DNA from: Tubulanus polymorphus
Lineage: Eukaryota; Animalia; Nemertea
Direction: 5' to 3'
Length of the DNA stretch: 64,000 bases
Assembly (NCBI RefSeq): GCF_964204645.1
Contig: NC_134036.1
Span: 11,201,859 to 11,265,858 of the forward strand
Of this stretch, positions 16,674-36,074 are shown piece by piece; the first letter of the stretch is position 1, and each line of letters begins with the position of its first letter. The notes beneath the pieces were generated by a model, which worked only from the letters and a program-made list of their open reading frames with translations, searched no databases and was not told where the DNA came from. The position numbers and the translations under genes are program-made.

Positions 16674-16809
16674 ATAGGCCTAACTGGACTGAATGTAGAG
16701 TGAATGTCATTGCCACAGACAGATAGTTTACACATATACAGTAGATTCCTCCTTATTTAATACAGCTAGTATTGGTGAATTTGAAAAATCATTCGGAAAA
16801 ATCTTCTCT

Positions 16810-17669
16810 ATTTCCCGATCGTAAACTTGGTGAAATATAAAAGGTCAAAATACTACCGAGTTCCCTGATTGTCAACTCGATGAAATTTAAAAAGTCAAAA
16901 CACTACCGAGTTCCCTGATTGTCAACTCGGTGAAATATTTACAGTAATCGAAATGCTACCGAGTTAACTGATTCTCATCTTAGTGAAATATTCACAACAG
17001 TCTCAACGCTACTGAGTTCCCTGACTGTCAACTCGGTGAAATAATTACAGCAATCAAAATGCTAGCGAGTTCCCGGAGACCAGTTACATAGTCATGGCTT
17101 AGACTTAAGACCAGTCTAAGACCAACTTAGTTCTATAGCCAATCTAACAACTTAAGACCAGTCTTAAGATTTAAGACCACTTTTTGACTTAAGTCACGAC
17201 TGTGCAACTGACCCCTGATTGTCAACTCGGTGAAATATTTACAGCAGTCTCAACGCTACCGAGTTCCCTGATTATCAACTCGGTGAAATATTTACAGCAC
17301 TCTCAACACGTTACCGATTTCCCTGATTCTCAAACTCGGTGAAATATTTACAAGTCTCAACACTACCGACTTCATTGATCCTCAACTCAGTGAAATATTA
17401 ACAGTTTTCTATTGACATGCTACTGAGTTCCCTGGCTGTCAAATCAGTGAAATATTTACAACAGTCTCAACACTACGAGTATATTGATTCTCAACTCAGT
17501 GAAATATTGACAGTTTTCTATTGACATGCTACCGAGTTCCCTGGCTGTCAAATCAGTGAAATATTTACAACAAGTCTCAACCCTCCCGAGTATATTGATT
17601 CTCAACTCAGTGAAATATTGACAGTTCAAATGACACCGAGTTCCCTGGCTGTCAAATCAATGAAATATT
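16810..17669. repeat. ~60-bp satellite array, left part
   Basis: Repeated CTACCGAGTTCCCTGATTGTCAACTCGGTGAAATATTTACAG-like units. Confidence 0.9.
17076..17214. mobile_element. Small MITE inserted in the satellite
   Basis: ~27-bp imperfect TIRs GAGACCAGTTACATAGTCATGGCTTA / TAAGTCACGACTGTGCAACTGACCCC; internal TTAAGACCA repeats; related sequences at ~58105-58204 and ~60008-60050. Confidence 0.7.
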
Positions 17670-18174
17670 AGTAATAGGGATAATGGGCTTTCAAGCCAAA
17701 GGTCGAACGGTCGAGCTCGTAAAAAATGAAAAACATAAAAATAATAACAATTTCTACTTGAATTACTCGCGAAACTCAAAAATAATAACAATTTCTACTT
17801 GAATTAGGAGTGAAACTCATAAAATGAAAAATAAATTCGAGCGTGTGAGAATTTATTTTTCATTTTTATGAGTTTCGCGAGTAATTCAAGTAGAAATTGT
17901 TATTATTTTTATGTTTTTCATTTTTACTCACCCGCCCGTTCAACCTTTAGCTTGAAAGCCCATTATCCCTATTACTCTTAAAATATTCATATATATATAT
18001 GAATAACATTTAAATCATTGAACTTCTAAAATCAATTTTAATAAAAAATATAGTATTAAAATGGAAGCAAATAAGTACTACTGCCCAACATGTAATATCA
18101 ATATAGATAAATCCCAAAAAGCAAGACACAATAAAACTATAACACATTTAGAGAATAAATTGAAACTAGAATAT
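17670..18174 (+). repeat. Left TIR (505 bp) with terminal hairpin 17670-17976
   Basis: Reverse complement of 35143-35606 except for the hairpin core, a 41-nt duplication (17761-17801) and a few small differences. Confidence 0.95.
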
Positions 18175-18312
18175 TTACAGTTATATTCAGAACAGTTAAC
18201 AAAGGGAAAGAAATTTATTGAATTATGGAATAATGATCCAAATAATGAACAATACGTTGAGGAATTTATTATCAAGGAATCGAAAGAACTTATCAAAAGC
18301 AGCGAGGAATGA
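18061..18312 (+). CDS. Chimeric 83-aa ORF: first 38 aa of PolB (zinc finger) fused to an HNH-paralog C-terminal tail
   Basis: MEANK...LKLEY is identical to the PolB N-terminus; LQLYSEQLTKGKKFIELWN resembles the end of the HNH gene. Confidence 0.6.
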   Translation: MEANKYYCPTCNINIDKSQKARHNKTITHLENKLKLEYLQLYSEQLTKGKKFIELWNNDPNNEQYVEEFIIKESKELIKSSEE

Positions 18313-18391
18313 AAAAGGATGACGTTGGTCGAAGAAATGGAAGAGGATTCTAAAATTATTAACCAATTTAGTAAAAAAATACGTATAATAA

Positions 18392-18997
18392 ATGGAACCA
18401 GAACAACCACAAATTATCAATATTACAAATAACACTGGCGTTATAAACATATACTACAAGAAGTGTTCTAAATGTGAATTAGATAAATTAGCTTTAACAG
18501 AATTTAGTAAGCGTAAGATTAGCAAAGATGGTTTTCAATATTGCTGTAAAACTTGCATTAAACTATATACTAAACAATATCGAGAAGATAATAGAGAATC
18601 TTATAATGATTATATGACAGAATATATGAGAGAAAGATATCAAACAGATCTTAATTTTAGATTGAAACAATGCTTAAGGACTAGATTAACACAATTATTC
18701 AACAAAGAAACACATTCAGAAACACTATCTAATTTATTGGGTTGTTCAGATGAATTTCTCAAATCATGGATAATATATCAATTCGACGATAAAATGAATA
18801 TAGATAATTATGGTGAATACTTTCATATTGATCATGTGTTGCCGATTTCTAAATTTGACATGAATGATGAATACAATAAAAAACTTATTTGGAATTGGAA
18901 GAATCTAAGACCTTTAGAAAAGAAGGAAAACATTATTAAATCCAATAAACTAGATTTACAGTTATATTTAGATCAACTGGATAAAGACATTTGTTGA
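18392..18997 (+). CDS. HNH endonuclease of the type common in large DNA viruses; C-terminus probably frameshifted
   Basis: KCSKC..F..KDG...CKTC zinc finger; YGEYFHIDHVLPIS..WNWKNLRPLEKKENIIKSNK. Confidence 0.8.
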   Translation: MEPEQPQIINITNNTGVINIYYKKCSKCELDKLALTEFSKRKISKDGFQYCCKTCIKLYTKQYREDNRESYNDYMTEYMRERYQTDLNFRLKQCLRTRLTQLFNKETHSETLSNLLGCSDEFLKSWIIYQFDDKMNIDNYGEYFHIDHVLPISKFDMNDEYNKKLIWNWKNLRPLEKKENIIKSNKLDLQLYLDQLDKDIC

Positions 18998-19403
18998 ATT
19001 ATGGAATAGTATTTCACAGAATCAACCGCATTCTGAGGTTTTGATCAGTGGTTAGAAAGCTGGCAATTCTATTTGAGCTTTGTATGTATATAATACATAG
19101 CTTTTGCTTACTACTAAAACATATGTTGTCAAATATATCTTGTTTTCAATTCTAAAGAATTAATTAACTTCATCATAAAGAACATCTGTGCAGAAGTAAT
19201 TAGTTTGGTCGAACGTGCGCCACGTCGGCAGTTAGAAATCAACTTTCACATACATAGTACGTATTGGATATTCTCTCTCAAAACACAGTTTACAGTTCTA
19301 AATCTAAATGTAAGTACCGTTTTTTGTAGTTATTATGAAGTAGGGAAACCTTTAAACATATTTAAGTACAGTAATTCATTTTCACGATATCTTTTAGATT
19401 AAA

Positions 19404-19871
19404 ATGGAACACAAAGATCAACCAGAAATTCTAAACCAACCAACGGATGAGGAACGATTGATACTGGATAGTGAAACTCAGGAATCAATAGAAATGGAGG
19501 ATGAAACTCTCGTAATTGACGAACAAACTTCACAAACATTACAAGAACATTTGGACTATCATCAAGAAATGGTGAAAATTCTGAGTGATGTAATACATAA
19601 TAAACAATTACCGCGCGAACTACAATTACCAAAATTACCAGCAACGCGACTTAAATTGCTGTTGGGACTCAAAGAATCGAAAACTAAGAAAAAGAACATA
19701 GATATCAGTGCCGGTTTTGAAAGAAAACTGAGAAGAGTAGGTAGATTAATAAAATATGAAAAATTCAAAATATTAGGATTAGCATTTAGTGAAGTAGTCA
19801 GATATTTACCAGAAATTGAAGAAATGATTGGAAACAATCCAGTAATTAAAGAATTCTGGACAAAATTATAA
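19404..19871 (+). CDS. Polinton hypothetical protein (acidic N-terminus, basic C-terminus)
   Basis: 155-aa ORF with TAAAATG start; no motif recognised. Confidence 0.6.
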   Translation: MEHKDQPEILNQPTDEERLILDSETQESIEMEDETLVIDEQTSQTLQEHLDYHQEMVKILSDVIHNKQLPRELQLPKLPATRLKLLLGLKESKTKKKNIDISAGFERKLRRVGRLIKYEKFKILGLAFSEVVRYLPEIEEMIGNNPVIKEFWTKL

Positions 19872-19959
19872 ATTATAATACTGAAGGTCTTTGTAATATA
19901 GATATCAAAAATGTAATCTCGATTGTATATATCTGTTTTAATATTGTATTGATTACTGT

Positions 19960-20302
19960 TAACTGTGTATTGCGCAATAACCGGTCCGATTGGACCGCAT
20001 TTCTATTGTTCTCCATTGTTCTACTATTGATCGTTGTTAATGGCGGCGGTTGTTCTGTATTGATTGTTTACTGTTAACTAAGTGTTGCGCAATAACCGGT
20101 CCGATTGGACCGCATTTCTATTGTTCTCCATTGTTCTACTATTGATCGTTGTTGACTGAAACAGCTGCTCAATATTGATTGGTTACAGTTCTATGTTTGA
20201 ATGTTGTAGTTTACAGAATAAAAATATAACTGTGTATTGCGCAATAACCGGTCCGATTGGACCGCTTTTCTATTGTTCTCCATTGTTCTATTATCGATCG
20301 TT
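19960..20302. repeat. Three ~75-bp direct repeats with a palindromic core
   Basis: TTGCGCAATAACCGGTCCGATTGGACCGC...TTCTATTGTTCTCCATTGTTCTA x3. Confidence 0.9.
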
Positions 20303-20713
20303 AAAATTTACATAATAAATATATGTGTTTATGAAATAAGATTTCCACCAGTCGTTTCTTTGAATTTATTTTCAGTTTTCGGATTTATTATCGAGAATCC
20401 GAAATGACTTATCTGGACAGTTATAGTTACTGCTCCTAATAGATAGACAATAGTAGTGAGATAATCTAAATCCTAATTTAAATAAAATATAATAAAAAAA
20501 CAATAACTTCAACTAGCTAGTCAATTCTATTATATTTTCAATATTTTCTTTTCAAAAAGAGAATACTTTATATTTTGAATAGATCCGAATAGAAATTCTT
20601 TAAATTCAAATAGCTAGTATCAGTAGTCAATACTAGAGTTCTTTAACTTTAACTATCTAGTATCATTTGAAGAATACTTATAATACTATTCTTATTAAAT
20701 TTCTCTAATATAA

Positions 20714-21316
20714 ATGTCAAAGAAATCTAATAAGAATAGTATTGATATTGAAAAAACATTAGATGATTTGGGTATAAGTGATAATAAAGATACAGTTGTT
20801 TCTAATTCTATTCAAGTTAATAACAATATAGATTATGAATACTACTTATATTGTAAGCACCATATAGAACTATTGATTGCCGGTGGAAAAACTAATGAGT
20901 TTTTAAATAGAATCATTACTTTTCAAGAATTAGATGCTATGAAACCCGATAAAGTAATAAAATATTTTAAGATTTATGAAGAAGCTCGATTAGCTAGAAT
21001 AAATGATTCTATTTCAGATGGTATTGTCAAATGTTATTCTAAGTTATGTAACCAGTTAATACCAATTGATGATGAAAATAAATTATATAATGATTTGAAA
21101 AATGACTATTTAGTTATGACTGAATTACAAAAATGGGTTGGATATGCTTCATTTCAATTAGGATCGGTTATGACATTAATTTCTACTGGTGTCATAACAT
21201 TTTCGAACATCAAGCCTATGGAATATAAATCAGGTAAGAACGAAACAGATGTACTACAACAAAACATCGAAACAGAAAATGAATCAGAACAAAAATTAAC
21301 TAAAATAAATGAGTGA
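20714..21316 (+). CDS. Polinton hypothetical protein with a hydrophobic segment near the C-terminus
   Basis: 200-aa ORF, TAAATG start. Confidence 0.75.
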   Translation: MSKKSNKNSIDIEKTLDDLGISDNKDTVVSNSIQVNNNIDYEYYLYCKHHIELLIAGGKTNEFLNRIITFQELDAMKPDKVIKYFKIYEEARLARINDSISDGIVKCYSKLCNQLIPIDDENKLYNDLKNDYLVMTELQKWVGYASFQLGSVMTLISTGVITFSNIKPMEYKSGKNETDVLQQNIETENESEQKLTKINE

Positions 21317-21704
21317 TGGAGTTAAGAAAAAGGCTAGATCCGAGAAACAAATTAAATGGGCAAGAGAATTAGGTAAAAGATCTTCAGAATTAAAAAAAGC
21401 TAAGAAAAAGAAATTAACTGATATAAATGAATCACAGAAATTATCTGATGGTGCCGTACAGCACCCACACGGTGGTATTGATTCAAATAATAATCCATCT
21501 AATTCTTCTAATAGTGGAAGAAATAATTACTTATATATTACAATTGGGTTAATCACAATTATTATATTCTCCGGTGTAATATATAAATCAAAATTCAAAT
21601 CTGACGATAAAGATGATCGGAAACTTAGTTATCCGTGTACAGACAATAAACCACCAGAAAATAAATCAAATGAAACTAAATCTAAAATATTATTAATGGA
21701 TTAA
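21309..21704 (+). CDS. Basic single-pass membrane protein
   Basis: Lys/Arg-rich N-terminus; TM segment YLYITIGLITIIIFSGVIY. Confidence 0.75.
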   Translation: MSDGVKKKARSEKQIKWARELGKRSSELKKAKKKKLTDINESQKLSDGAVQHPHGGIDSNNNPSNSSNSGRNNYLYITIGLITIIIFSGVIYKSKFKSDDKDDRKLSYPCTDNKPPENKSNETKSKILLMD

Positions 21705-21707
21705 AAT

Positions 21708-22796
21708 ATGATGAAAAAAGAACAATATTTAAGAGATTTATATTATAACCCAGAAAGTGAAGTATCATTTTCTAACGTTTCAGAATTATGGAATAAAATT
21801 AAATCTGATAATAGCAATATAAAATATAGTGAATTAAAATCATGGTTACAAAATCAACCAACATATCAAATTCATAAAAAGATGGATAAAAAATATTTAA
21901 CAAGAAAAGTAATGGTTTCATATATCGATCAACAATGGCAAGCTGATTTAATTGACATGAAAAACTTAGAAGAATATAACAAAGGATATTTTTGGATACT
22001 AAATGTTATAGATATATTCAGTAGATACGCATGGAGTATCCCGATTAAAAATAAAACTGGTATAGAAGTTACAAATTCTTTTAAATCTATATTTAAAGAA
22101 GCTATTCCATATAAGATACAATTTGATGAAGGTAAGGAATTTTATAACAAACATTTTAAAAAACTATTAACTGATAACGATGTAGAATATTTTTCAACAC
22201 ATTCAGATAAAAAAGCATCTGTTATAGAAAGATTTAATAAAACATTGAAAACTAGAATGTGGAAATATTTTACTGCTAATGAAACATATAAATATATCGA
22301 TGTGTTAGATGATTTAGTTAAAGGTTATAATAATTCTAAACATAGTTCTATAAATATGAAACCTATACAAGCTAGAAAAGAAGAAAATTCAGAAATAGTT
22401 TGGAATAATTTATATGGAGCATTTGTTACACATGATTTTGGAGAACCTAAATTTAAAATAGGACAACATGTTAGAATTTCTAAATATCGAAAAACATTTT
22501 ATAAAGGTTATACCCCTAATTTTACAGAAGAAATATTTAAAATTAAAAAGATAATATTAACTAAACCATTTGTTTATATATTGTTTGATTTAAAAGATGA
22601 AGAAATATTAGGTTATTTTTATGAACAAGAATTATCATTAGTACCAAATCCAGATGAAATAGAATACAAAATAGAAAAAGTATTGAAAACAAAAACTCTT
22701 AAAGGAAAAAAGTATTCTTTGGTGAAATATAAAGGATACGATGATAAATTTAATGAATGGATTTTATCTAGTAAAATTAAAAGAATAAATGAATAA
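21708..22796 (+). CDS. Retroviral-type (rve) integrase with C-terminal chromodomain
   Basis: QWQADLID, IDIFSRYAW, QFDEGKEF, VIERFNKTLK (DDE); YKIEKVL..LVKYKGY..FNEW chromodomain. Confidence 0.96.
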   Translation: MMKKEQYLRDLYYNPESEVSFSNVSELWNKIKSDNSNIKYSELKSWLQNQPTYQIHKKMDKKYLTRKVMVSYIDQQWQADLIDMKNLEEYNKGYFWILNVIDIFSRYAWSIPIKNKTGIEVTNSFKSIFKEAIPYKIQFDEGKEFYNKHFKKLLTDNDVEYFSTHSDKKASVIERFNKTLKTRMWKYFTANETYKYIDVLDDLVKGYNNSKHSSINMKPIQARKEENSEIVWNNLYGAFVTHDFGEPKFKIGQHVRISKYRKTFYKGYTPNFTEEIFKIKKIILTKPFVYILFDLKDEEILGYFYEQELSLVPNPDEIEYKIEKVLKTKTLKGKKYSLVKYKGYDDKFNEWILSSKIKRINE

Positions 22797-23400
22797 AGAT
22801 TTATTTATATTTGAACCACATAATATGTTAGTTACTGGAGTTACAAATTGTGGTAAAACACATTTCATATTAGACTTGTTAGAAACTATTTATAAAAATC
22901 ATTTTGATAATATAATATTATTCTGTCCTACATATGAAATGAATAAAACATATAATAGAGATATAGTTAAGATAAAAAAGTTTATTATATTAGACCCTAA
23001 AACAGTAAAAGAAAATTTAGATAATTGTATAAAAATTGCATTAGATATTTATAAAGGATCAAATACATTATTTATTATAGATGATTGCGCAAATTTACAT
23101 GATTCTAAAATTAGAGAAAGTGAGTTATGTTATTTAGCTTTCTCTGGTAGACATTTTGGGATAACAACATGGGTTTTAAATCAGAAATATAATTCAATTG
23201 TGAAAGATTTTAGAGAGAATATAAGATTTCTAGTTTTATTCTACAACAAAGATAGAAAATCTATGCAACAATCATTGGAAGAAAATCAAATTATACCTAC
23301 TGAATTACATGATGAATATATGAATAAATTAAAAAATAATAAAGGTTCCAAATTACTTATGAGATTACAATTTCCATATGAATATAAATTTATAAAATAA
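22789..23400 (+). CDS. A32/FtsK-like genome-packaging ATPase
   Basis: Walker A GVTNCGKT, Walker B LFIIDD, SGRH arginine-finger motif. Confidence 0.92.
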   Translation: MNKDLFIFEPHNMLVTGVTNCGKTHFILDLLETIYKNHFDNIILFCPTYEMNKTYNRDIVKIKKFIILDPKTVKENLDNCIKIALDIYKGSNTLFIIDDCANLHDSKIRESELCYLAFSGRHFGITTWVLNQKYNSIVKDFRENIRFLVLFYNKDRKSMQQSLEENQIIPTELHDEYMNKLKNNKGSKLLMRLQFPYEYKFIK

Positions 23401-23534
23401 CTATTTGTATACCTATGTATTAGATACCCTAATACCCCATTAGATACCCTAATACCTGATACCCTATTAGATACCTTAAATACTTAAAACCCCCTTTTTT
23501 ATTTACTACTATTTTATACAATTTTCAACCTTTA

Positions 23535-24440
23535 TTATTCGAGTAATATATAATTACTTTCTGAATCACTTTCACTATCAGACCTTAACAACATATTTAA
23601 ATGCTCTACCGAATTTACATCAACATCTTTATAATTTTGTTTCACCTTTTTCGCCTTTTTTACCACACCACCAATAGTTGTTTCGTTATTACGCTTATTC
23701 ATCCTTTCTATTATATCATCAATAGTTTCTTCTTTATGTTTCATAGAATCTTTAATATCAATATCTGTAACTATATCACCATGTGGGCGTATGGCACCAT
23801 TTTCATTATCATCTTTATTAGTGTTTGCTCCTAATATTTCATTTACAGTGTTTGATCCTAATATTTCATTAGCATCGGTTAAATCTAATTCATCGTTATT
23901 AGGTGTTGCTAATAATAAATCTTTATATAATTCTTTACCATTTACTTTTTTATTTGAAACAAATTTTGTAACATATCTAAATGGGTGTTCTATAAATTCT
24001 TTTTTACCAACACGTTCTATAACATTAGTAATATGTGAATTTGTATTCATATGTTTATTCCAATTTGATGGAGCGTTTGAAAATTCACCATTACAATAAC
24101 CACAATAATTTCTATTTTCACTAACATCTAATATTATTGAATTAATATATGTAGAAGGTATTACGTTATTAGATGTAGTAGGTATTACAGATGTAGTAGT
24201 AGGTATTACAGATGTAGTAGTAGGTATTATAGATGTAGTAGGTATTACATTATTATCAATTACACTATTATTAACAACACCACTTTTATTATTATCGATT
24301 TCTATCAGTTTAGTTTTATAATTTTAAAAAATAGGATCAAATATCAAAGCTATATTACAAGGTATTACATAATATAAACCATCATTATTTTCATGTGTAT
24401 CGATGTATGGAATATGTTTATATACTTTACCTCCTTCCAT
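23535..24440 (-). pseudogene. ~300-aa C2H2 zinc-finger protein with one in-frame TAA (24324-24326)
   Basis: TAAATG start at 24440 is in frame with ORF 23535-24050; includes IPTTTSV repeats and CGYC..NWNKHMNTNSH. Confidence 0.8.
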
Positions 24441-24472
24441 TTATTATATATATTTTTATTAAAGTTAAAATT

Positions 24473-25720
24473 CTAATACATAACACTATCTAATTGTGAA
24501 TTTACAATATTTAATTGCGCGTCAGATATAATATAAATGTGCATTTTAAAATTTTTGATTCCTTTTTTCTTTGTCATGAATAATTGTATTCCATCTTTTG
24601 TATTTTGTAGTTTTTTTCCAGAACCATGTAATAAGTTATCTTCAGTTGTTCTAAAATCTACCCATAATGCAAATTTATTACCGGTATAATAGTCAATTTG
24701 ATTTATGTTACAATTTTCAAATGATTTTACTTTTTCATTCATAAAATGTTTTTTAATTTCTGGCCATTGATCAATCATTCTCATTCCTTGACAAAATATT
24801 TTATTTGCTATTCCTTCGATAGTTATTTCTACTTTTGTTATTTCAGGATTATAATAATTATCAACATTTATTGCGCCATTAGTATACGTTCCAATAGTAA
24901 AAAATATTAATATACCTTTAATAGATCTTCTAGGGAAGTTAATATTCTCATTTATTATTTCATCATTTGCATTAATAGTTACAGTTTTAAATTTATCAAT
25001 ATAATCATATAATAATGAAAATCCTTGATTGTATTGAGTTTGAATTATACTTGAAATATTTTCATCAGTTACTGTATCATATTCTAAACATATATTTGAT
25101 AATTTATAACTCATATCTTTATTAACGCTAGATATTACAATTTCATTAACAGGAGCAAATGTTATCTCAAATATAATATCTTCTTGAATTGCGTATTTAT
25201 ATAAAGGTGCATTATTATTTATCAATTCAAAGTCTAATGGAATTTTATATTTGCTTCCATATATACTTTTTATCAATTTATCTACATCATTTGTTAATAT
25301 TGCGCTATTAGCTTCTGATCTTAATTTATTTTGGTTTTCTGATTGGATTCCTTGAAATATCATATTATTTCTATTTTCTTTAGTTAACCATAAATCTTTA
25401 TAATGCATAAATAAATTATAATCATCTAATGAGAAAACTGTTTCTGGACCAATCTTTATTGTTAATTTTTTAATCAAATATCTTCCAACATTATCAACAA
25501 CATAATTATTATTATTACCGATTACTTTTATATCAGCTGATAAATAAATACTGTTTGGAACATAAAAAGTATTTTGTGTTAATCTCGGAATTCTAACGTA
25601 TAAAGTTTCATCGGGATTAATATTTGAAGGGTTATGAGTAATTATATGATGTGATCTTTCTGCTTTAATAGCATTAGATATTCTATGATTCTTAGAAGGA
25701 TTGATATAACTCCCACTCAT
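24473..25720 (-). CDS. Major capsid protein (predicted double jelly-roll), 415 aa
   Basis: Size, beta-rich pattern (LYVRIPRL, LTIKIG, YKLSNICLEYD, FALWVDFR, MHIYIISDA) and Polinton context. Confidence 0.8.
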   Translation of the reverse strand: MSGSYINPSKNHRISNAIKAERSHHIITHNPSNINPDETLYVRIPRLTQNTFYVPNSIYLSADIKVIGNNNNYVVDNVGRYLIKKLTIKIGPETVFSLDDYNLFMHYKDLWLTKENRNNMIFQGIQSENQNKLRSEANSAILTNDVDKLIKSIYGSKYKIPLDFELINNNAPLYKYAIQEDIIFEITFAPVNEIVISSVNKDMSYKLSNICLEYDTVTDENISSIIQTQYNQGFSLLYDYIDKFKTVTINANDEIINENINFPRRSIKGILIFFTIGTYTNGAINVDNYYNPEITKVEITIEGIANKIFCQGMRMIDQWPEIKKHFMNEKVKSFENCNINQIDYYTGNKFALWVDFRTTEDNLLHGSGKKLQNTKDGIQLFMTKKKGIKNFKMHIYIISDAQLNIVNSQLDSVMY

Positions 25721-25761
25721 TTATTTAACAAAAAAATTAATTATTTATTTTTGATCATGGT

Positions 25762-27336
25762 TTACTTGATATTTTTTGATATCATATTTACTAAACCAAA
25801 AATAATAGCACTTACAACTGTAATTAAAAATAAAATAATATGTTCAGCAGCAAAGTTAATAATGTTTCCTGCAGATTTCAATATAAAACCAACAATTGAT
25901 GCAATAACTCCTGGCAATGCTGCAGCAGATTTCTTTGATAGTTCCCATAAATATTTTGCTAATTTCTTTAAACCATCTTTAACTTTATCTTGTATAGAAT
26001 TATTACCTGGGGGTTTATCTGGTTTATTAGGAGTGGGAGTAGGAGTAGATTTTAAAGCATTTGATATTGATAAACCAATTGTTGTAAATACCATAGTTAC
26101 AGATGTTAGAATTGAAAGAATTGTTATTCCTTCTAATTTAAATAATAATCTTATTCTGTCTTTTAATGATATTTCAGAATTTGGTTTTATTAGATATCTT
26201 TTAAAAACATCTTTTAATCTTTTAAAATTATTACCAAATTCTTTTAATAATATATCTCTTTCACCTTTTTGTACTTCTAAATTATCTTTTAAATTATCAA
26301 TTTCTTTTTCTAAACCTAATTCTTTTTGCCTATATTCTATTTCATCAATTACTTGATGGTCTAAATCAGACTTTAATTATTCTATTTCTTTATTTTTATC
26401 AGTTAATTCTTTTTCTAAAATGTTAATTTTAATATCTCTTTTACTTTTTTCATGCGCAATTTTATCAGCTGATTCTTGCATACCTTTAATTTCTCTACGT
26501 GTTTGTTCAGGAAATGCTTCTAATTCATCATCAGTTAAATCAAGTAATCCTTTTTCTAGTAAAGATTGTATTCGATTTATTCCAATACTATTCATCTCTT
26601 CGTCAAATGAATCTCTTAATCTATCAATTTGTTTTTCTAATACTAATTGTAATTGACTTGAATCATTATCAATTTGTTGAGTGTCTCTTCTCGATGTTTC
26701 AGGTGTTGAAGATCTTATTCGATCTCTATGATCTTCCATTTCTGTTTCTAAATTATTATCGATTATTTTAAATAAGTTATCAATTCTTTCACTAAATACT
26801 CTTATATTATTATTTCTTTCTTCTTGTGTAACATCAGTTATTTCATTACTATTACTTATTCTCTTAATTCTATCTGGTTCTAACTTAAGCAAAGTTGATT
26901 CTGCTAATATTTTACTTAGTTTTGTACTTTGATTAGTGATATTAATATAATAATCATCTTTCAAATGATAATAATATTCACCATCTAAAAACTTTAAATC
27001 TTGTACTAAAAGTCTGGCGCCTCTGTAATTTATATTATATCCAGATCTTTCAAATACATCTTGAAACTTATATATAAATCCAATATTTTCTAAATCTTCC
27101 TTTTTTAAACCTTGATTTTCATTTTCAGTATTTATTCTCGATCTAGTTCTTCTATCAAATTCATCTGTTGATGGGGCTTTAGAACCACTATCTGCTAAAT
27201 TAGTATTATATCCTGATTCATCATCATTATCAATATTAGTTTCATTAAAATCGGGTTGTGGTTCATCATCAATATATCCTTCATTATTATTTCCCATTTC
27301 TCCCATTTCATAATCTTTTCCACCTTCTACATCCAT
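25762..27336 (-). pseudogene. ~524-aa acidic/coiled-coil protein with C-terminal membrane segments, one in-frame TAA (26377-26379)
   Basis: ORFs 26377-27336 and 25762-26094 are in the same frame and the 94 intervening codons are open (LKDRIRLLFKLEGITILSILTSV). Confidence 0.85.
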
Positions 27337-27352
27337 TTACATAATAAAAAAA

Positions 27353-28657
27353 TTAAAATTTAAAATATAATATTCCTCCGATTACAATTCCTATACAAGT
27401 TATAGCTAATTTAGTATTTTCATGGGATTTATTATCATCATTTAGTTTAATTATATCATGTTGAATATTATCAGTTTTTATATCTTCTGATGTATTGTAA
27501 TCTTTTATTTTAGAATCATTATTTAATTTAATATTATTAGTTTTAGTTTCAGTTGATTGAATATGTTTTTTATTTTTTTCACCTTCCATTAATTTTGGAG
27601 CAGTAATAATCTTTTTATTTATATCATTTAACCCAAATGAATTATTTATTGTTGCAGTTTTAATTAAATTATTATAACCAATTATATTTCCCATCTTTAA
27701 TACTAAATCATTAGAAATAATTAATAGATTAGGGCCTATACAATAATTTAGTCTTACATGAGATTTATCTAAATAATTTTGATATCTTATAATGTTTTCT
27801 GGAATCGATCTATTTTTATCATTATGAATTGAATCTTCAAATAAAACTTTAAACTGTTTCTGCGCATCGAATGAAGTGTTATCATTTCCAATTATTGGGG
27901 ATCTTGTTTCAACTTGAGCGCCTAAAATACATATCAAATAAATTCTAATAGATTGATTTATTCTTTGTATACCTGATTTTGTAAAACCTTCACCATTTTC
28001 TAAAATGAAATTAACCCAACCATTATTATTATCAATTTTATAATTATGATAAGCTGAAATTCTATGCATATAATCAATTCTTTTTATTTCATACTCTTCA
28101 ACACCTTGCAATTTACCATGCGCTCTAAAATCGGAATTAATATTTATATTAAATTCATTACATATTTTATAAAACTTGGATATATTAATATTATTATCCA
28201 ATTCTTTAAAATATTTAGACCCGGGTAAAGGACATTCTAATTCATTTAATATTATTCTGATTTGAAAATATGTGTGAAATCTAAATATTGTGTGAATTAA
28301 TTTTAAATCAGAATACTTCAAATTTTTATCTAAGTTATTTAAATGATCATTCCAACTAATTCCACATCCTGTTGTTGCACAATAAACAGCAAAATTTAAT
28401 TGATTCTGCCAATATTTCATATTAGATTTTACTTTATATATATGATATTCATCTCGAGTAAAAGTAACTTCATATGTATTAGATATATTTTCCATTTTAG
28501 AAATAAAAAACTGTGATTCATTAACATAAATTTCTAAATTAGTTAATGAATTTAAAACTATATTTTTTTATGTAATATTTTTCTTAAAATCTATTGCTGG
28601 AATATTATATTTAATTGATTTATTATATCGGAAAGCTTTTGGAAAACTATCTACCAT
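27353..28657 (-). pseudogene. ~434-aa probable virion protein with C-terminal TM anchor, one in-frame TAA (28568-28570)
   Basis: TAAATG start at 28657 (MVDSFPKAFRYN) is in frame with ORF 27353-28495; WQNQLNFAVYCATTGCGIS motif; C-terminal TM. Confidence 0.8.
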
Positions 28658-28673
28658 TTATATAATTAAAAAA

Positions 28674-29017
28674 TTAATAATTTATTAATTCTTTTAATAA
28701 TTTATCTTGTTCTTCAACTGTTATATGACCATTTAAACTTATTATATAATCTAAACACTTGAACTTAATCCTAATACGCCAATTGATATAGCTAAAGGTG
28801 TTAATGGACTGAATATTGCTAGAAATGTTATTACAGAACTAATTGTAACCGAACCACTTATAATCAAATAATATATAATTTTACTTTTTAAATATTTTTT
28901 CTTTTTTATCTTTAAGTCACTTTCAAATTCTAATATTTGTTTTTCTAAATATGTTTTTAATTTAGTTTTATTTATATCATGAGGAATAATATCAATACTA
29001 TCAACTTTATCTTCCAT
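28674..29017 (-). pseudogene. Small membrane protein, frameshifted near 28755
   Basis: Coiled coil plus two hydrophobic helices; a plausible C-terminus (LDYIISLNGHITVEEQDKLLKELINY*) continues in another frame. Confidence 0.65.
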
Positions 29018-29036
29018 TTATTTAGAATAAAAATTA

Positions 29037-29459
29037 CTAATTAGTAAATTTATAAGCAACAAATATAACAATAACTGTTCCACCTAAAATCCATTATATT
29101 TCATATTTCTGTTGTTCTTTACTTGGGGTATAATAATCTGATAATTTAGGTTTGTATAGATGTAATTTTTCTTTATTGGTTACTGTGTTATATAAACTCA
29201 TTGCATCATCAACTGATTGAAAATCTCTATGTGAAATCTTCTGATCATATAATTCTTTATTGATGTAATCCATATAGTTTTGTCTCTTTTCTCTATATTC
29301 TTCTGCAGCTTTATTGTATTTCTCTAACGCTAAATTATGTCTTCTTTGTTCTCCTAATGAACTATTTTTATCAATATGTTTAAATAAATAACCACCACCA
29401 GTAAATGCTAAAGCGTTAACAATTGCCGATCCTATAATAGTTATAATTGCAGAAGCCAT
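29037..29459 (-). pseudogene. ~140-aa membrane protein with one in-frame TAA (29094-29096) before its C-terminal TM helix
   Basis: N-terminal hydrophobic helix, EQRRHNLALE; the frame continues past the stop as WILGGTVIVIFVAYKFTN*. Confidence 0.8.
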
Positions 29460-29486
29460 TTATTTAGCAAAAAAATTACACACTTC

Positions 29487-29708
29487 TTATATGGGAGGAA
29501 TATATTTTTGTTTTTCCAAGTAATCAATAGTTAAATTAGATAAAGTAACTGCTAATGTTAACTTTAAAATATCATTTATATCAAATCTATCAACATTAAC
29601 ACTTCCCATTTTGAATACTTTTTTTAATACCATTGAATAACCAACAGTTCCAACTGATAGTAATGCGCCATTATATAATCCAGTTATTATCCACTTATTA
29701 TCACTCAT
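29487..29708 (-). CDS. 73-aa small hydrophobic protein
   Basis: Two hydrophobic/amphipathic helices; TAAATG start. Confidence 0.75.
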   Translation of the reverse strand: MSDNKWIITGLYNGALLSVGTVGYSMVLKKVFKMGSVNVDRFDINDILKLTLAVTLSNLTIDYLEKQKYIPPI

Positions 29709-30065
29709 TTATTTATCAAAAAAATTACTATCATCAAAATATTTAGTTAACTTAGTGATTATTAATTCAACATTTATTTTATTACTAGTTTCATTTGTAT
29801 ATATTTCAATTAGTATTTTTTTAATATCATCGATGATAAAATCTTCATCTAATTCATAAAATCTTAAAGATTCTCTAATTAAATTAGTAATCTTTTCTAC
29901 ATTTAAAGTTTCTTTATCTATTGTTGTTTCATACTCAAATGTTGTTTCATTAGAAAATGTGATATTTTTAATATGTGTTATTACATCATTCATGTTAAAT
30001 TTCATTTCTTTCTCACGTTTAAAATCAAATCCAAAACATATACTCGGTCCAACAGTTATATTCAT
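29709..30065 (-). CDS. Polinton hypothetical protein, 118 aa
   Basis: TAAATG start; its stop abuts the next ATG. Confidence 0.7.
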   Translation of the reverse strand: MNITVGPSICFGFDFKREKEMKFNMNDVITHIKNITFSNETTFEYETTIDKETLNVEKITNLIRESLRFYELDEDFIIDDIKKILIEIYTNETSNKINVELIITKLTKYFDDSNFFDK

Positions 30066-30081
30066 TTATATAGGTGAAAAA

Positions 30082-30837
30082 TTACTCTTTACATCTTATA
30101 ACTAATTCATAAATTACAGGAAAGTTATTCAAATCAATTAAATATCCATTGTGATTTCTTATTTCTAACTTAAAATTATTAAATTTTGGAATACAAGGTT
30201 TGAAATCACATTCTGTTAAATTATAATTTATTTGAGTTCCAAATTGTTTAACATTTTTTAGCGGTAAAATATTTAGTATACTAGAACTACAAATTGTTTC
30301 TTTAGTTGCTTCGAAAGTTTTTGTAGGCTCGATTAAATTGCAATAAATATAAATGTGTGTAAAAGGTATTATATTTGAGCTGCCTTCTGCGTTTCCAGTA
30401 ACTGTAAGAGGTTTAATTTCTAACATTTTAGCCAGTGGTTTGTTTACCATAAATTTATGTTGTTCATTAGAAATCTTTATTCTTATTTTATTAGTACTAT
30501 CAATTTTATTAAATTTAATTTCAAATACAGAAGTACCCCCGATTTTCAACCGAGCTCTTCTATTAATTTCCTGCGCTAATGATTCTAAATTATATAATCC
30601 TGGTTTTAAAAATATATGAAACCATTTATCTTTATTTCTCATATAAATCATAAACCCTCTATGTTCAAAAGTTTTATCCGATATATTATAAAAAGAATTA
30701 CATAAACTTATATTTACTAATTTTAAATCTACACAATTCTTAAATTCTCTATCTAATTGTACTAATAAATTATGAGATTTATAATTTGTAAGTTTTCTAG
30801 AATCTACAAATATTCTGTATTCTTTTAATTCTACCAT
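30082..30837 (-). CDS. Minor capsid (penton-like, single jelly-roll) protein
   Basis: IFVDSR, SFYNIS, LKPGLYN, IYIYCNLI, ILNILPL, FKLEIRN..GYLIDLN..VIYEL pattern typical of Polinton minor capsids. Confidence 0.8.
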   Translation of the reverse strand: MVELKEYRIFVDSRKLTNYKSHNLLVQLDREFKNCVDLKLVNISLCNSFYNISDKTFEHRGFMIYMRNKDKWFHIFLKPGLYNLESLAQEINRRARLKIGGTSVFEIKFNKIDSTNKIRIKISNEQHKFMVNKPLAKMLEIKPLTVTGNAEGSSNIIPFTHIYIYCNLIEPTKTFEATKETICSSSILNILPLKNVKQFGTQINYNLTECDFKPCIPKFNNFKLEIRNHNGYLIDLNNFPVIYELVIRCKE

Positions 30838-30854
30838 TTATTTTACATATTTTC

Positions 30855-31196
30855 TTATTCGAAATCTATTTCATGGTGCCCTTTTTCATTCTTACCTTTG
30901 TATACAAAATAGAAATCTCCAGAACATAATTCTTCTAGATCTTCACTTGATAATCTATGAAATCTATCTGGTAAATAAGTTCTGAATTTATATTTATTTC
31001 CTTTTAATCCTTCATATTCTAAATGAATTACTAATTTATCTCCATATTTATTAGTAATTGTTTCAATGTTATTAATTAAATATTTCTTGTGAATTGTTAA
31101 CTCAGTTAGTTTTTTAAATTTATAATCTACAGATTTGACGCTTGAAGTATCTTTAATTCTATCTAAGAATTCACTGTGTACTTGTTTACTCTCCAT
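30855..31196 (-). CDS. 113-aa protein downstream of polB, possibly ssDNA-binding/OB-fold
   Basis: KKLTEL..KKY.I..TNKYG..V..TYLPDRF..FVYKG beta pattern and acidic tail; function is inference. Confidence 0.55.
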   Translation of the reverse strand: MESKQVHSEFLDRIKDTSSVKSVDYKFKKLTELTIHKKYLINNIETITNKYGDKLVIHLEYEGLKGNKYKFRTYLPDRFHRLSSEDLEELCSGDFYFVYKGKNEKGHHEIDFE

Positions 31197-31224
31197 TTAT
31201 TATACAAATTTTTATTGAAATTGA

Positions 31225-34200
31225 TTAACACGCTAGAATCCTTTTCATAATCTCATTTTCTTTTGTTTCTTCTCTTTTGAATTTTATATATTCATCTAAA
31301 TTGCAACCATAGGCGACTGTGTGGATTCCATCACCTAAAATATATCTTTTATCATCAAATGGGTTTAGACTTATCTTCTCTATCTCTTCAATATACATTT
31401 CATGATCTTCAGATCTTAAACATTTCATGTTATGTTTTCTAACTTCTTCATTAAATATACAATTGATGTAATCTTTGAAATGAATATTCTTTTCAACAAC
31501 GCTTTTGGTTATTCCTTTTAACTTTTTAGCTTCATGTTCTTTAGTTTTATATGAATACATTTTAGATCTAATACCTATGAACTCTATCATTTCTTCACCA
31601 CCTAATTCATCCTTAAACTTCCCAGGAACTTTTTTATTATCATTGGTAAACAATTCATGATTTTTTGGATAATTACTGAAATCAAAATGATGTTTTAATG
31701 TTTTTAAATCATCAGTTATGTTATCAGTTTTTATCTTTAATATGTAACTGTCAGTATCAAAATATAATATTTCTATGTGTTTTTCTCCAAAATGGGGTTG
31801 TAATATGTTATAGTAAAATTTATACATTAATAACTTTGATAATTCTAAAACTGATGCACCAACATAGATTGGTTTATTGAATTTCATACTTGTTCTTCTC
31901 ATTTTAACTGCTGCTAAATTTTCATCAAATATTCTGTTACCTATGAATTTCGGATACGATTGTAAATGTCTAATTCTTTTACCATTACTGACTAACTCAA
32001 TATCACTTCTATTTCTTATGTTTTCACATGTTTTTCCATAAAACGCATTATTCATTAACTTGAAGAAATCTTTTTCGAAATCGGTTTTAGCTTCAGTTCT
32101 CTGTGTAGTATTAAAATCTATATATTTTTCTAACCACTTAGATTGATTAAATGAAATATATCTATGTACTTTTTTTAGAATCATTCCTTGATTCAAATAA
32201 AACTTCAACATTCTATAATGCACAACGTAATTATATTTATCTTCTTGAGTTACCATTAACTTTTCAGTATGAATATGATTATCAGGTTTAATTCTTTTTT
32301 GATAATTTGATAATTCTTCATGTTTAACAGTTTTATGTTCGGGACAATATGCTAGATTTCTAGATTTGAATTTAATATTTTCAGGGTATTCTAAATCTAC
32401 AACAAAGAAGTAACCAGTATCTGAATCATCTGCAATATCTAGAATTCTTTTCTTCCAATCAAATTTATCAATTTGTAAAACTTCAGTTATTTCAAACATC
32501 CCATAAGGTTGTGGTTCCATCATTACCCAACCATAAAGATTATTTGCATCTATGTATAATGATTTATATCCAGGATTATCATTTACATTGAAATATCTAT
32601 CACCCAATACACCTGAAACACCTCCTCTTATAGATTTTTCAAATAATAGTAATTGATCTATATTTGTTAACAAATCCATTTTTATATCTGTAAATTTTAA
32701 TCCACAATCCCATGTTAATCCTGGTGATGAATAACAATGACAAGGATCAATATTGAAATATTTTAGGTTTACATCTCTAAACCTTTCGAATATATCGGTT
32801 AATAATAATACATCTGATTTTAAATATAAATCTACTAATTGCCCGTGATTTTCTATTTTGAAATGATTCCAAATATTCAATGTTCTATTATAGACTTCAT
32901 CTTTAACATATTCATTTTTTAATTCATCATAGAATTGTTCTTTCAATAATTCAGTTATTTTAAAATCATTATGATTTTTATAGAAAGAATATGGAATCGC
33001 TCCTTTAAATCTCATTAATTGAAAATCATCATTATTTGGGTAGTGTTGTTTTAATATCTTTAATTCATCATCAACTAATGATTTTGATAAGTTATCTAAT
33101 GAACTATTTAAAAATCTATATGAATCTATAAATCTTAGACACCCAAATTGGAATGATATATAATTCTCAGATGTTTTAGCTAACATTCTAAATTTATAAG
33201 TTGGTATTTTATCTTTTGATCTATTTGAATTTAATATTTCTATTTCATTATTGATTTCTTCTATTTTATAACATAGCTGTTTGATAAATAAATGTGCATC
33301 ATATCCTGATAGATTATGAAATATAACTGGTACAAAGTTAATTTTCTTAGCTTGTAAGTTACAATTCTCATGTGCAGCGCCTCTAAACTTTCTATTCAAA
33401 TGATCATGGTCTCTTACCTTTTTATCAGATGAATAGAATACTTGATTACAATAATAACATTTATCTGCAAACTCAAATTCTTCTTTATCTTCTTCTGTCA
33501 TAATTATTTCTTTATTTTCATTTAACTTTTCATTAAATTTTATTTCATATTCAATTAATAAGTCACAAAAATGATTAATAACATTTTCATTTCTATAATT
33601 ATAATATTCACTTTCAATTAGTTCTGGATAATCAGATTTAATATATAACCCGAAAGCTGCAGCTGATTGATGAATCTTTTTAATAGTATTTGTTTTTGGT
33701 GGTTCATCTGAATAATCACTTTCATTAGAATTTAATTTCTTTCTTTTATAATATATATCTTTTCTATCTTTATCTGTTAATTCTTTATTTAATGATTCAA
33801 AATCTCCATATATTACAAATGGTACTTTATTTTTGTAATGATATTTTTTGAATTCTAATATTTTATCTTTTTCATTTGGTAAAACTAATTTACAATAATC
33901 ATGATTATCACATAGTTGTTTATGATTTAATAATGTACTTTCATTACTGAATCTATGTAAACATTTTCTACATAGATATATTTTATGGTGATCATTTTCT
34001 GATTTGAAAAATAAATCGATTTGTTTAATCCACATGTAATGATTTTCATAATATAGTATATCTATAACATTATTTGAATCATAATCTTTTGATAGGTATA
34101 AAGGTTCTAATGTATAATGTTTTATGTTGTTACCTTTTGTATTTGGTAATTTGATTAAATCAAATACATTTATCTTTAAATTATTATCTCTTTCTATTTT

Positions 34201-35256
34201 TGGAATATTTTTAATTCTAACAGGATACTTATCTATCTTATAATTATTTTCAAAGTGTTTATAATGAGTTAATCTAAAACTATGTTGTTTATAATCTTCA
34301 ACTGGGTGTAAACAACTTATTATAGCCCATATAAAACATTTTTTATCAAAATTTTGTATATTTATTACTGCTTTTGTTGTAAATGGTAATTTAATATAAC
34401 TTGTTCCATTTATACTATCATCTTTATAATATGATAAATTATTTTCATCAATTGGTTTTGATTTAGTTAACTTATTATATTTTGTGTTATAAACATGTAA
34501 AGTTATAAATATTATCTCATCAAATATTAAACCAGATCCTTCAAAATATTTCTCTTCTATTTTAGTTTTTACTTCATTATAACATTTATTTAATTTATCA
34601 TCTATATGTTGTTTAGATATAATATGTTGTGAATGAGAATTTATATTATATATTGGTTTATCTTCAGATTTTATAAACTTTACTTTAACTGATATACTAA
34701 TTTTAGGATATTCAACATCTGTAATTATTTTTATTATTTCTTTCATATTTTCTAAATGTTTTTTATTTTCTTCTAATGTTTTTCCTTTATGAAATTTAAA
34801 CTCGATAGCTGCTGGACCAATATCACTTTTAAATGCTTCGGTTATTTCTATATCTTTTTTATTATCTAATGAATTAATATAATTTCTTACATCTTCCATG
34901 TATGGTCTTTTATTGTTTAATTTATTTTTTATTCTTTTAATTGTCTTCTGTTTCTTATCGTTATCATTATCAAAATAATCTTCACCTAAAATATCATTAT
35001 TCTTATTTCTAATATGACTTATAGATTTTAAATGTTCTTTATAATATCTTTTATCACTGAATGATTGATTACATGTATCACATTTGTATGTTTCTTTTTC
35101 ATTCTTTAATTCTTCTAATTTAGTTTCTAATATATTATCTTTATATTCTAGTTTCAATTTATTCTCTAAATGTGTTATAGTTTTATTGTGTCTTGCTTTT
35201 TGGGATTTATCTATATTGATATTACATGTTGGGCAGTAGTACTTATTTGCTTCCAT
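31225..35256 (-). CDS. polB: Protein-primed family B DNA polymerase, 1343 aa, intact
   Basis: Exo I YGDFES, Exo II FHNLSGYD, Exo III YLKSDV, motif A DANNLYG, motif B KLMNNAFYGK, motif C YFDTDS; N-terminal C2H2 fingers; EndoVII-like insert CYYC..VRDHDH..GAAHENCN. Confidence 0.97.
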   Translation of the reverse strand: MEANKYYCPTCNINIDKSQKARHNKTITHLENKLKLEYKDNILETKLEELKNEKETYKCDTCNQSFSDKRYYKEHLKSISHIRNKNNDILGEDYFDNDNDKKQKTIKRIKNKLNNKRPYMEDVRNYINSLDNKKDIEITEAFKSDIGPAAIEFKFHKGKTLEENKKHLENMKEIIKIITDVEYPKISISVKVKFIKSEDKPIYNINSHSQHIISKQHIDDKLNKCYNEVKTKIEEKYFEGSGLIFDEIIFITLHVYNTKYNKLTKSKPIDENNLSYYKDDSINGTSYIKLPFTTKAVINIQNFDKKCFIWAIISCLHPVEDYKQHSFRLTHYKHFENNYKIDKYPVRIKNIPKIERDNNLKINVFDLIKLPNTKGNNIKHYTLEPLYLSKDYDSNNVIDILYYENHYMWIKQIDLFFKSENDHHKIYLCRKCLHRFSNESTLLNHKQLCDNHDYCKLVLPNEKDKILEFKKYHYKNKVPFVIYGDFESLNKELTDKDRKDIYYKRKKLNSNESDYSDEPPKTNTIKKIHQSAAAFGLYIKSDYPELIESEYYNYRNENVINHFCDLLIEYEIKFNEKLNENKEIIMTEEDKEEFEFADKCYYCNQVFYSSDKKVRDHDHLNRKFRGAAHENCNLQAKKINFVPVIFHNLSGYDAHLFIKQLCYKIEEINNEIEILNSNRSKDKIPTYKFRMLAKTSENYISFQFGCLRFIDSYRFLNSSLDNLSKSLVDDELKILKQHYPNNDDFQLMRFKGAIPYSFYKNHNDFKITELLKEQFYDELKNEYVKDEVYNRTLNIWNHFKIENHGQLVDLYLKSDVLLLTDIFERFRDVNLKYFNIDPCHCYSSPGLTWDCGLKFTDIKMDLLTNIDQLLLFEKSIRGGVSGVLGDRYFNVNDNPGYKSLYIDANNLYGWVMMEPQPYGMFEITEVLQIDKFDWKKRILDIADDSDTGYFFVVDLEYPENIKFKSRNLAYCPEHKTVKHEELSNYQKRIKPDNHIHTEKLMVTQEDKYNYVVHYRMLKFYLNQGMILKKVHRYISFNQSKWLEKYIDFNTTQRTEAKTDFEKDFFKLMNNAFYGKTCENIRNRSDIELVSNGKRIRHLQSYPKFIGNRIFDENLAAVKMRRTSMKFNKPIYVGASVLELSKLLMYKFYYNILQPHFGEKHIEILYFDTDSYILKIKTDNITDDLKTLKHHFDFSNYPKNHELFTNDNKKVPGKFKDELGGEEMIEFIGIRSKMYSYKTKEHEAKKLKGITKSVVEKNIHFKDYINCIFNEEVRKHNMKCLRSEDHEMYIEEIEKISLNPFDDKRYILGDGIHTVAYGCNLDEYIKFKREETKENEIMKRILAC

Positions 35257-35606
35257 TTTAATACTATATTTTTTATTAAAAGTGATTTTAGAAGTTCAAT
35301 GATTTAAATGTTATTCATATATATATGAATATTTTAAGAGTAATAGGGATAATGGGCTTTCAAGCTAAAGGTTGAACGGGCGGGTGAGTAAAAAAATGAA
35401 AAACATAAAAATAATAACAATTTCTACTTGAATTAGGAGTGAAACTCATAAAATGAAAAATAAATTCGAGCGTGTGAGAATTTATTTTTCATTTTTATGA
35501 GTTTCGCGAGTAATTCAAGTAGAAATTGTTATTATTTTTATGTTTTTCATTTTTTACGAGCTCGACCGTTCGACCTTTGGCTTGAAAGCCCATTATCCCT
35601 ATTACT
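35143..35606 (-). repeat. Right TIR (464 bp) with terminal hairpin 35339-35606
   Basis: Inverted copy of the left end, containing the polB start; AGTAATAGGGATAATGGGC...GCCCATTATCCCTATTACT palindrome. Confidence 0.95.
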
Positions 35607-36020
35607 AATATTTACAAGTCTCAACCCTCCCGAGTATATTGATTCTCAACTCAGTGAAATATTGACAGTTCTAATGACACCGAGTTCCCTGGCTGTCAAA
35701 TCAGTGAAATATTTACAACAGTCTCAACTCTCCCGAGTATATTGATTCTCAACTGAGTGAAATATTGACAGTTCAAATGCTACCAAGTTCCCTGACTGTC
35801 AACTCCGTGAAATATTGACAGTTCTAATGACACCGAGTTCCCTGGCTGTCAAATCAGTGAAATATTTACAACAGTCTCAACTCTCCCGAGTATATTGATT
35901 CTCAACTGAGTGAAATATTGACAGTTCAAATGCTACCAAGTTCCCTGACTGTCAACTCCGTGAAATATTTACAGTCCAAATGTGCTCAAGTTCTTTAATT
36001 CTCAATGAAATATTTACAGC
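35607..36020. repeat. ~60-bp satellite array, right part
   Basis: Same units as 16810-17669, resuming in register after the TSD. Confidence 0.9.
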
Positions 36021-36074
36021 AGTCCTTATGATACTCAATAAGGCGGAGTTTACGAATATTTTGATGGATATTAC

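Follow-up and report, generated by a model that had tools for sequence, protein, structure and literature searches.

Long polarised hairpin ends in an animal pPolB Polinton, with an inverted left core that likely records a template switch

Results

The element and its genes

The window, a stretch of 64,000 nucleotides from Tubulanus polymorphus contig NC_134036.1, holds a Polinton/Maverick (Table 1). A host tandem repeat with spacings of 50, 103 and 153 bp surrounds it (about 16800-17669 and 35607-36035), and its insertion target is a 6-bp palindrome. Joining the two flanks gives a sequence that fits the surrounding repeat at 94.8% (135 columns); this match, together with the 6-bp duplication, indicates that insertion was precise. 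Published criteria for Polintons give a length of 13-25 kb, TIRs of 100-1,500 bp, a TSD of 5-8 bp, pPolB, integrase, ATPase and capsid (bioRxiv 10.1101/2023.08.22.554363). The element falls within the Polinton/Maverick ranges in its TIRs (505 and 464 bp), its TSD (6 bp) and its total length (17,937 bp), and it encodes a pPolB with predicted terminal-protein and vOTU domains, an rve integrase, a packaging ATPase and a predicted double-jelly-roll capsid protein.

Table 1. Features of the element and of its two ends (window coordinates)
Feature	Position	Strand	Remarks
Left TSD copy, AATATT, 6 bp	17664..17669	+	
Whole Polinton/Maverick	17670..35606		17,937 bp; 24% GC against 38% in flanks
Left terminal hairpin, 307 nt	17670..17976		-116 kcal/mol, z -23.7, 0 of 100 shuffles as good
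Left outer arm and core start	17670..17778	+	exact reverse complement of 35498-35606 (normal TIR reading), 109/109 nt
Imperfect 41-nt tandem	17738..17819	+	units 17738-17778 and 17779-17819
Inverted core	17779..17925	+	exact direct copy of 35408-35554, 147/147 nt
Left inner arm	17926..17976	-	inner variant and inward-facing copy of terminal motif
Inner non-palindromic left TIR	17977..18174	+	pPolB upstream region and first 38 codons
ORF with HNH-like motif (by eye)	18392..18997	+	its homologues come after pPolB in L002-L004
rve integrase with C-terminal chromodomain	21708..22796	+	PF00665, E 2e-8, above cut-off
A32-type packaging ATPase	22789..23400	+	PF04665, E 1.3e-11
Double-jelly-roll major capsid protein (predicted)	24473..25720	-	model pLDDT 90.6
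pPolB, 1,343 aa	31225..35256	-	zinc fingers, predicted terminal-protein and vOTU, exonuclease, polymerase motifs
Inner non-palindromic right TIR	35143..35338	-	overlaps pPolB start
Right terminal hairpin, 268 nt	35339..35606		-114.9 kcal/mol, z -24.3, 0 of 200 shuffles as good
Right hairpin tips	35339-35365 / 35580-35606		perfect, 27 bp
Right hairpin mismatched arm zone	35378-35389 / 35556-35567		
Right hairpin perfect stem	35391-35435 / 35511-35555		45 bp
Right hairpin second mismatched zone	35436-35440 / 35506-35510		5 nt
Right hairpin inner stem-loop	35442-35504		63 nt, with 10-nt loop at 35468-35477
Right TSD copy, AATATT, 6 bp	35607..35612	+	

The match of the integrase to the chromodomain family (PF00385, E 8.5e-5) is below its curated cut-off, and the HNH-like ORF had no Pfam match. 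The capsid model resembles PBCV-1 capsid chains among solved structures (E 2e-17); sequence searches of solved structures identified neither the capsid protein nor the N-terminal domains of pPolB, and folding identified both. Among the 19 ORFs of the element we found no Pfam match for a maturation protease of the adenain type or for a minor capsid protein, in a search that missed the capsid as well. Nor did these ORFs, several of which are unassigned, match a Rep/HUH family, a weak negative because Pfam likewise missed the polymerase core and the capsid. The search of viral contigs returned no match for the capsid protein, whether as a single sequence or as an alignment, and none for an 18-nt terminal motif. 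From the endonuclease VII-like insert in its polymerase, and with no match to PF03175, the element, a Polinton/Maverick (adintovirus), probably belongs to the divergent, Beta-like pPolB class. Elsewhere in the window lie an ORF resembling hAT transposases (39209-41179, PF05699, E 9.7e-7), a single-ORF rhodopsin-type GPCR (12335-13315, PF00001, E 5e-19), in keeping with an animal host, and two further inverted-repeat pairs, at 10892-12781 (159 nt, 82%) and 59152-60336 (65 nt at 95% and 45 nt at 96%), which are likely small DNA transposons.

The polymerase and its position

Homologues of pPolB numbered 6,574 among 7,988 scored, with the motifs conserved. The model of residues 120-470 (pLDDT 83) contains a domain like the little finger of Y-family polymerases (Z 8.5, rmsd 2.8, 104 residues aligned), the predicted terminal protein at about residues 132-261, and an OTU-like domain resembling viral OTU proteases (Z 7.2, rmsd 3.7, 109 aligned), the predicted vOTU at about residues 271-415; both Z values are middling on the scale of the comparison tool. 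Foldseek with the same N-terminal model gave no match at E<=0.001 and only Y-family polymerases at about 5e-3. A little-finger-like plus an OTU-like domain is the signature described for the Polinton terminal protein and vOTU (PMC11071308), and the candidate catalytic Cys and His of the vOTU, labelled from that source, are present. Since both predicted domains are kept, protein priming has likely been kept as well.

Within the exonuclease, residues 587-635 form an endonuclease VII-like insert with a conserved DHDH and N (Endonuclease_7, E 0.004, below the cut-off). HNH-type nuclease inserts in pPolB have been described already (bioRxiv 10.1101/2023.08.22.554363). The insert was considered as a hairpin resolvase and rejected as such, its motif being found in nine of nine loci with or without hairpins, including L005 and five distant elements.

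Among 99 related loci (76 from metagenomes, 23 viral), three close relatives, L002, L004 and L005, reach the end upstream of pPolB. Close relatives carry on one strand the end, a 113-aa gene, pPolB and the HNH-like gene (L002 601-5713, L004 344-5459), and continue to the integrase (L003 1-7154). In the window, pPolB and the 113-aa gene (30855-35256) are at the right end, on the opposite strand with respect to that order, and at the left end (region 18061-18312) only the first 38 pPolB codons remain, within the TIR. Judged from this arrangement, pPolB seems to have moved from end to end, and the inner TIR duplicates the sequence upstream of pPolB together with the 5' end of the gene. L002 has an internal 17-nt copy of the terminal motif just upstream of pPolB (about 948-964), which could seed end-to-end rearrangements.

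Both ends are long imperfect hairpins

The first-pass annotation of the window had proposed that both termini are long palindromic hairpins, and folding of each end bears this out, with z of about -24. Its observation that the terminal sequence occurs four times is likewise correct: a 19-nt motif is present on the plus strand at 17670 and 35339 and on the minus strand at 17958 and 35588. As it also claimed, the variants that distinguish the arms are inverted between the ends, the outer variant being outermost at both, and the asymmetric core has the same orientation at both ends (17772-17925 and 35401-35554, direct, 99%). Folding of both ends predicts that the terminal palindrome is able to fold in a way that presents its 3' end.

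In the window element (17700-17716 and 35369-35385), L002, L004 and L005 alike, a tandem pair of GG(T/G)(C/T)GA-like motifs is found 30-45 nt in from the tip and is a candidate protein-binding site. The variant GGTTGA is found in three of three inner arms and in none of three outer arms in the window and its relatives. The long hairpin also looks nested (35436-35510), with a 63-nt inner stem-loop that resembles the core of a short class placed mid-loop in the other, as if one hairpin class had been copied into another.

The left end differs from the right in a way that can be read letter by letter. Its outer 109 nt follow the normal TIR reading and the next 147 nt are a direct copy of the right end (Table 1). 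The 41-nt duplication that had been reported at 17761-17801 is real, although it is best read as 17738-17778 followed by 17779-17819, with the expected isomer ending the first unit and the other isomer the second. The core is thus inverted between switch points in the arms, with flanks and arm variants unchanged, the pattern of spacer inversion by template switching. The first, out-of-register switch point would be the junction 17778/17779, where a register offset of 41 nt gives the duplication, and the return switch would fall inside the perfect stem, at the right end of 17779-17925. The exchange point within this 45-bp stem leaves both outer and inner arm variants in their places. Elsewhere the TIRs differ by one substitution, a 2-nt difference in an AT run and the lengths of A runs.

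Hairpin ends in other copies and in relatives

Other copies of the family were sampled in X4, one raw Illumina run from another sample with the same species label, of which about 12% was used. It gave 14,853 reads on 34700-35670, with a depth of about 670-1,140 inside the element, 1,720-1,890 in the inner TIR and 4,290 in the outer arm. At the tip there were 1,715 loose ends with an agreement of only 0.33, which indicates many insertion sites.

The multicopy family in X4 contains at least three length classes of hairpin, with mirrored indels. Among the 15 of 106 joints listed, the 63-nt inner stem-loop is replaced by two letters in 183 reads, 58-nt skips occur in the inner arm (42 reads) and in the outer arm (97 and 30 reads) at mirror positions, and a 73-nt skip occurs in 117 reads. 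Variants recur on both arms (35349/35596 at 54%/53% and 35354/35591 at 44%/48%, in unphased reads where cross-mapping is possible), and the mismatched zones keep a fixed polarity in the same unphased reads, with neighbouring variants on both arms. Well-agreeing loose ends at 35302, 35531 and 35550, of about 590-680 reads each, mark other subfamilies in which the tip or the hairpin is shared but the interior differs; these may be non-autonomous elements or copies lacking a hairpin. A free 268-bp hairpin MITE was considered as a separate element; among the six loose ends listed in X4 (with 557 more) none was at 35339, and the tips are symmetric.

In L002, whose pPolB is 76% identical, the end is a 257-nt hairpin (z -18.5, 25 base shuffles) whose layout is the same although its middle sequence differs: a near-perfect tip, a mismatched zone with two GG(T/G)(C/T)GA-like motifs, a perfect AT-rich stem, a second mismatched zone and a GC-rich loop. 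The contig of L004 (also 76% identical) starts inside a hairpin; in L005 (62% identical) the tip is homologous but folds into no long hairpin (z -0.6). The terminal motif was used to place the ends of these relatives, with a GC step as a further guide in L002 and L005, independently of any TSD. Hairpin ends are a lineage trait and not a quirk of one copy, being found in two of the three close relatives that reach an end and in the reads; the hairpinless tip of L005 indicates that they are not needed throughout the group. In five distant loci with long inverted repeats, eight ends gave fold z of -3.8 to +1.5 on contigs that may stop short of the true tips. A palindrome in L003 (5677-5765) was rejected as a hairpin end; it is internal, not terminal.

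Orientation of the core in reads

Is the inversion at the left end a trace of how the element regularly replicates? The first-pass annotation had likened it to flip/flop of the parvovirus or poxvirus kind and concluded that hairpin strand-switching or hairpin-assisted priming operates in the element, a view that would fail if other copies had one orientation. Since integrated copies descend from replicated molecules, an obligatory flip/flop should leave both isomers in the genome. X4 reads were compared with the right hairpin as reference, to which right-isomer reads fit cleanly while left-isomer reads mismatch at the marker zones; the left isomer was expected to give A>C at five sites in four such zones, each with at least one. 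In a tiling simulation (custom aligner, error-free reads, inner half only), reads tiled from the left inner sequence as it naturally occurs carried A>C at 35438 in 23 of 54 or 12 of 43 covering reads, depending on scoring, and at 35559 and 35565 in 48 of 48 or 25 of 25, and 262 tiled right-end reads gave no A>C. The Logan contigs X1-X3 were set aside for this question, because the markers cannot be phased across the 45-bp perfect stem.

The 5,006 X4 reads at 90% likeness or more held 54 variant sites at 3% or more, one of them A>C, which lies outside the 40 of the 54 that were listed (lowest listed share 7%). Against the five such sites expected, and within what is a rough bound, this does not resemble the AAV pattern, in which each end takes either orientation at random and independently of the other. 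Loose ends left of the loop are inner-type and those right of it outer-type, the phase of the right end, in the best 6 of 118 listed. Opposite-strand joints had 7, 7 and 33 reads, as against 149, 75+26 and 90 in the main same-strand joints (15 of 30 joints listed); their assignment is uncertain and library chimeras could contribute. The left isomer would also produce two further changes seen in the reads, G>T at 35508 (97 of 1,106) and G>C at 35510 (481 of 1,097); the latter is read as a subfamily letter because it is found in unflipped read pieces.

One full marker cluster at 3-7% could sit among the variant sites beyond the 40 of 54 listed, and diverged left-isomer reads could fall below the 90% likeness limit of these unphased read tables. 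We would place the left isomer below about 15-30% of ends, a rough bound from unphased short reads, and equal isomers are unlikely. The right-end isomer dominates in X4 and the arm variants are not swapped, so flip/flop as the regular mode of replication is not supported, and the single orientation that would speak against it is largely what the other copies have. With one orientation apparently dominant among copies, the flip at the left end was likely a single copying error.

Discussion

The reading that we favour, with modest confidence, is that this is a Polinton with long imperfect hairpin ends that carry the terminal motif head to head, and that a single template switch, not regular flip/flop, likely produced the flipped core and the 41-nt duplication at the left end. 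Of the earlier proposal that strands switch at the hairpins, what survives is strand switching as the best account of the left end. In this element pPolB would protein-prime replication from the outer tips with strand displacement, and the displaced strand would fold back its last 150-270 nt. Such a fold-back could rebuild a local double-stranded origin with no pairing of ends 18 kb apart, and the folded arm could serve as a backup template for a damaged tip. The same arms would invite template switching, by which arms are homogenised, indels are copied from arm to arm and the core is occasionally inverted. At the left end, synthesis of the new strand would have run normally for 109 nt before switching to the opposite arm, 41 nt out of register; the core would then have been copied in reverse until a return switch within the perfect stem. 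This could have taken place either during replication of the element or later in the host chromosome, the sequence being compatible with both. Switching between arms explains the left end together with the mirrored indels and with the nested appearance of the long hairpin. In published work on template switching, an intermolecular switch with both switch points in the arms inverts the core, and the same process homogenises arms (PMC8604942).

The hairpins may be real and the left-end inversion and duplication an artefact of sequencing (strand switch on a hairpin), assembly or polishing, which we regard as unlikely, if far from negligible. Both left segments reproduce right-end sequence without a single difference, high-copy hairpins are hard to assemble, as the break of the L004 contig inside one illustrates, and X4 holds the left isomer in a minority of reads at best. 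On the other hand, the TIRs differ elsewhere, which shows that neither end is a simple copy of the other, the element is cleanly inserted, and strand-switch and length variants occur in the family reads, though library preparation can also create such joints. Somewhat doubtful, too, is the idea that the hairpins have no function and arose by fold-back repair of an end, kept only because template switching keeps the arms alike. The plain tip of L005, the weak folding of the eight distant ends (z -3.8 to +1.5) and the free variation of length among copies all agree with it, whereas L002 has kept the layout despite a different middle, and in the unphased reads the mismatched zones have retained one polarity even though variants next to them occur on both arms.

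Two further readings give the hairpin a part in replication. In one, which we think improbable, synthesis on the displaced strand starts from its own folded 3' end, and the resulting junction is resolved so that one orientation is kept, for example if only the outer arm variant is a protein-primed origin. The predicted fold puts the 3' end flush at the base of the perfect 27-bp stem with template beyond it, and the full terminal motif is on both arms. The left end of minute virus of mice is a parvovirus end that keeps a single orientation. Hairpin priming has been proposed for virophages and a PLV with terminal palindromes, although the palindromes of that preprint go mainly with non-pPolB elements (bioRxiv 10.64898/2026.07.28.741278). 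Against it, the element keeps its predicted terminal-protein and vOTU domains, the 19 ORFs gave no Rep/HUH match (the weak negative noted above), and the sequence data bear no sign of a closed-end intermediate. A bolder version, also doubtful, envisages an animal Polinton clade with a hybrid origin, in which a terminal-protein origin would occur twice per end, head to head, the displaced strand would snap back and self-prime, and polarised mismatches would choose the origin or integrase copy and keep one orientation. By far the least probable is regular flip/flop as in AAV or vaccinia, both isomers arising at random each round, possibly through cutting by the endonuclease VII-like domain of pPolB. 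The opposite core isomers at the two ends of the window copy, the weak Endonuclease_7 match with its conserved residues, and the cutting of poxvirus ends from cruciforms by a resolvase (PMC8956199) speak for it. AAV ITR orientations are random and independent (PMC11575299) and vaccinia stocks contain all four end arrangements (PMC8956199), but the 5,006 reads bear no sign of equal isomers. Moreover, transfer of a whole hairpin would swap the outer and inner arm variants and none are swapped, which argues against flip/flop, and the same nuclease motif occurs in L005 and five of five distant elements that have no long hairpins.

How does the element compare with known systems? It shares gene set, TIR, TSD, length and the terminal-protein and vOTU domains with Polintons/Mavericks, and differs in that the outer half of its TIR is a 150-270-nt hairpin with a second, inward-facing terminal motif. 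The closest precedent is a 2026 preprint on endogenous virophages and PLV subtype 4 of Halocafeteria seosinensis, which describes palindromes in the TIRs, of 52 nt in the example figured, mostly alongside replication genes other than pPolB (bioRxiv 10.64898/2026.07.28.741278). Like the window element, these have palindromes adjoining the TSD and an rve integrase, and hairpin priming is proposed for them; the palindromes of the window element are 3-5 times longer, polarised, accompanied by a complete pPolB and in an animal genome. The word "flip" is absent from the text of that preprint, which is the one direct precedent we found, and we found no description of flip/flop or long hairpin ends in pPolB Polintons in the openly available papers and preprints searched. 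Protein-primed replication of Polintons is "suggested" in one source (PMC4061559) and is also the model in a figure legend of the Halocafeteria preprint. The former also has it that bidnavirus ends form no hairpins, and some casposon TIRs contain palindromes (PMC4046053); general background is to be found in PMC8502044, PMC11296320 and PMC8232201.

Ripley-type quasi-palindrome mutation (PMC8604942) shares arm homogenisation with our element, and spacer inversion if the first switch is intermolecular and in the first arm; in yeast the spacers are 2-5 bp, as against a core of ~75 bp inverted in the window with the first switch 41 nt out of register. The rolling-hairpin ITRs of AAV and other parvoviruses (PMC11575299) share an imperfect terminal palindrome inside an inverted repeat and two core orientations in one genome, whereas our element has no recognised Rep, orientations that are non-random among copies, dsDNA, TSD integration and a protein-priming polymerase. 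Poxvirus telomeres (PMC8956199) share AT-rich, incompletely paired hairpins whose mismatches persist while the sequences change between lineages; in poxviruses the ends are closed covalently and both forms are released from concatemers by cutting, whereas the window palindrome is a full duplex at each integrated end with one form dominant.

We conclude that the inversion most likely has an ordinary mechanism and that long polarised hairpin ends in a pPolB Polinton are what is new. Finding opposite core isomers at the left and right ends of a single assembled copy is no demonstration of flip/flop replication, and similar cases call for caution. These ends extend terminal palindromes from mostly non-pPolB protist elements to an animal pPolB element, and a Polinton lineage with 150-270-nt hairpin ends of conserved layout, set beside its plain-tip relative L005, offers a natural contrast for testing end function. 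A hybrid origin, if true, would unite protein priming of the adenovirus type and hairpin priming of the parvovirus type in one replicon.
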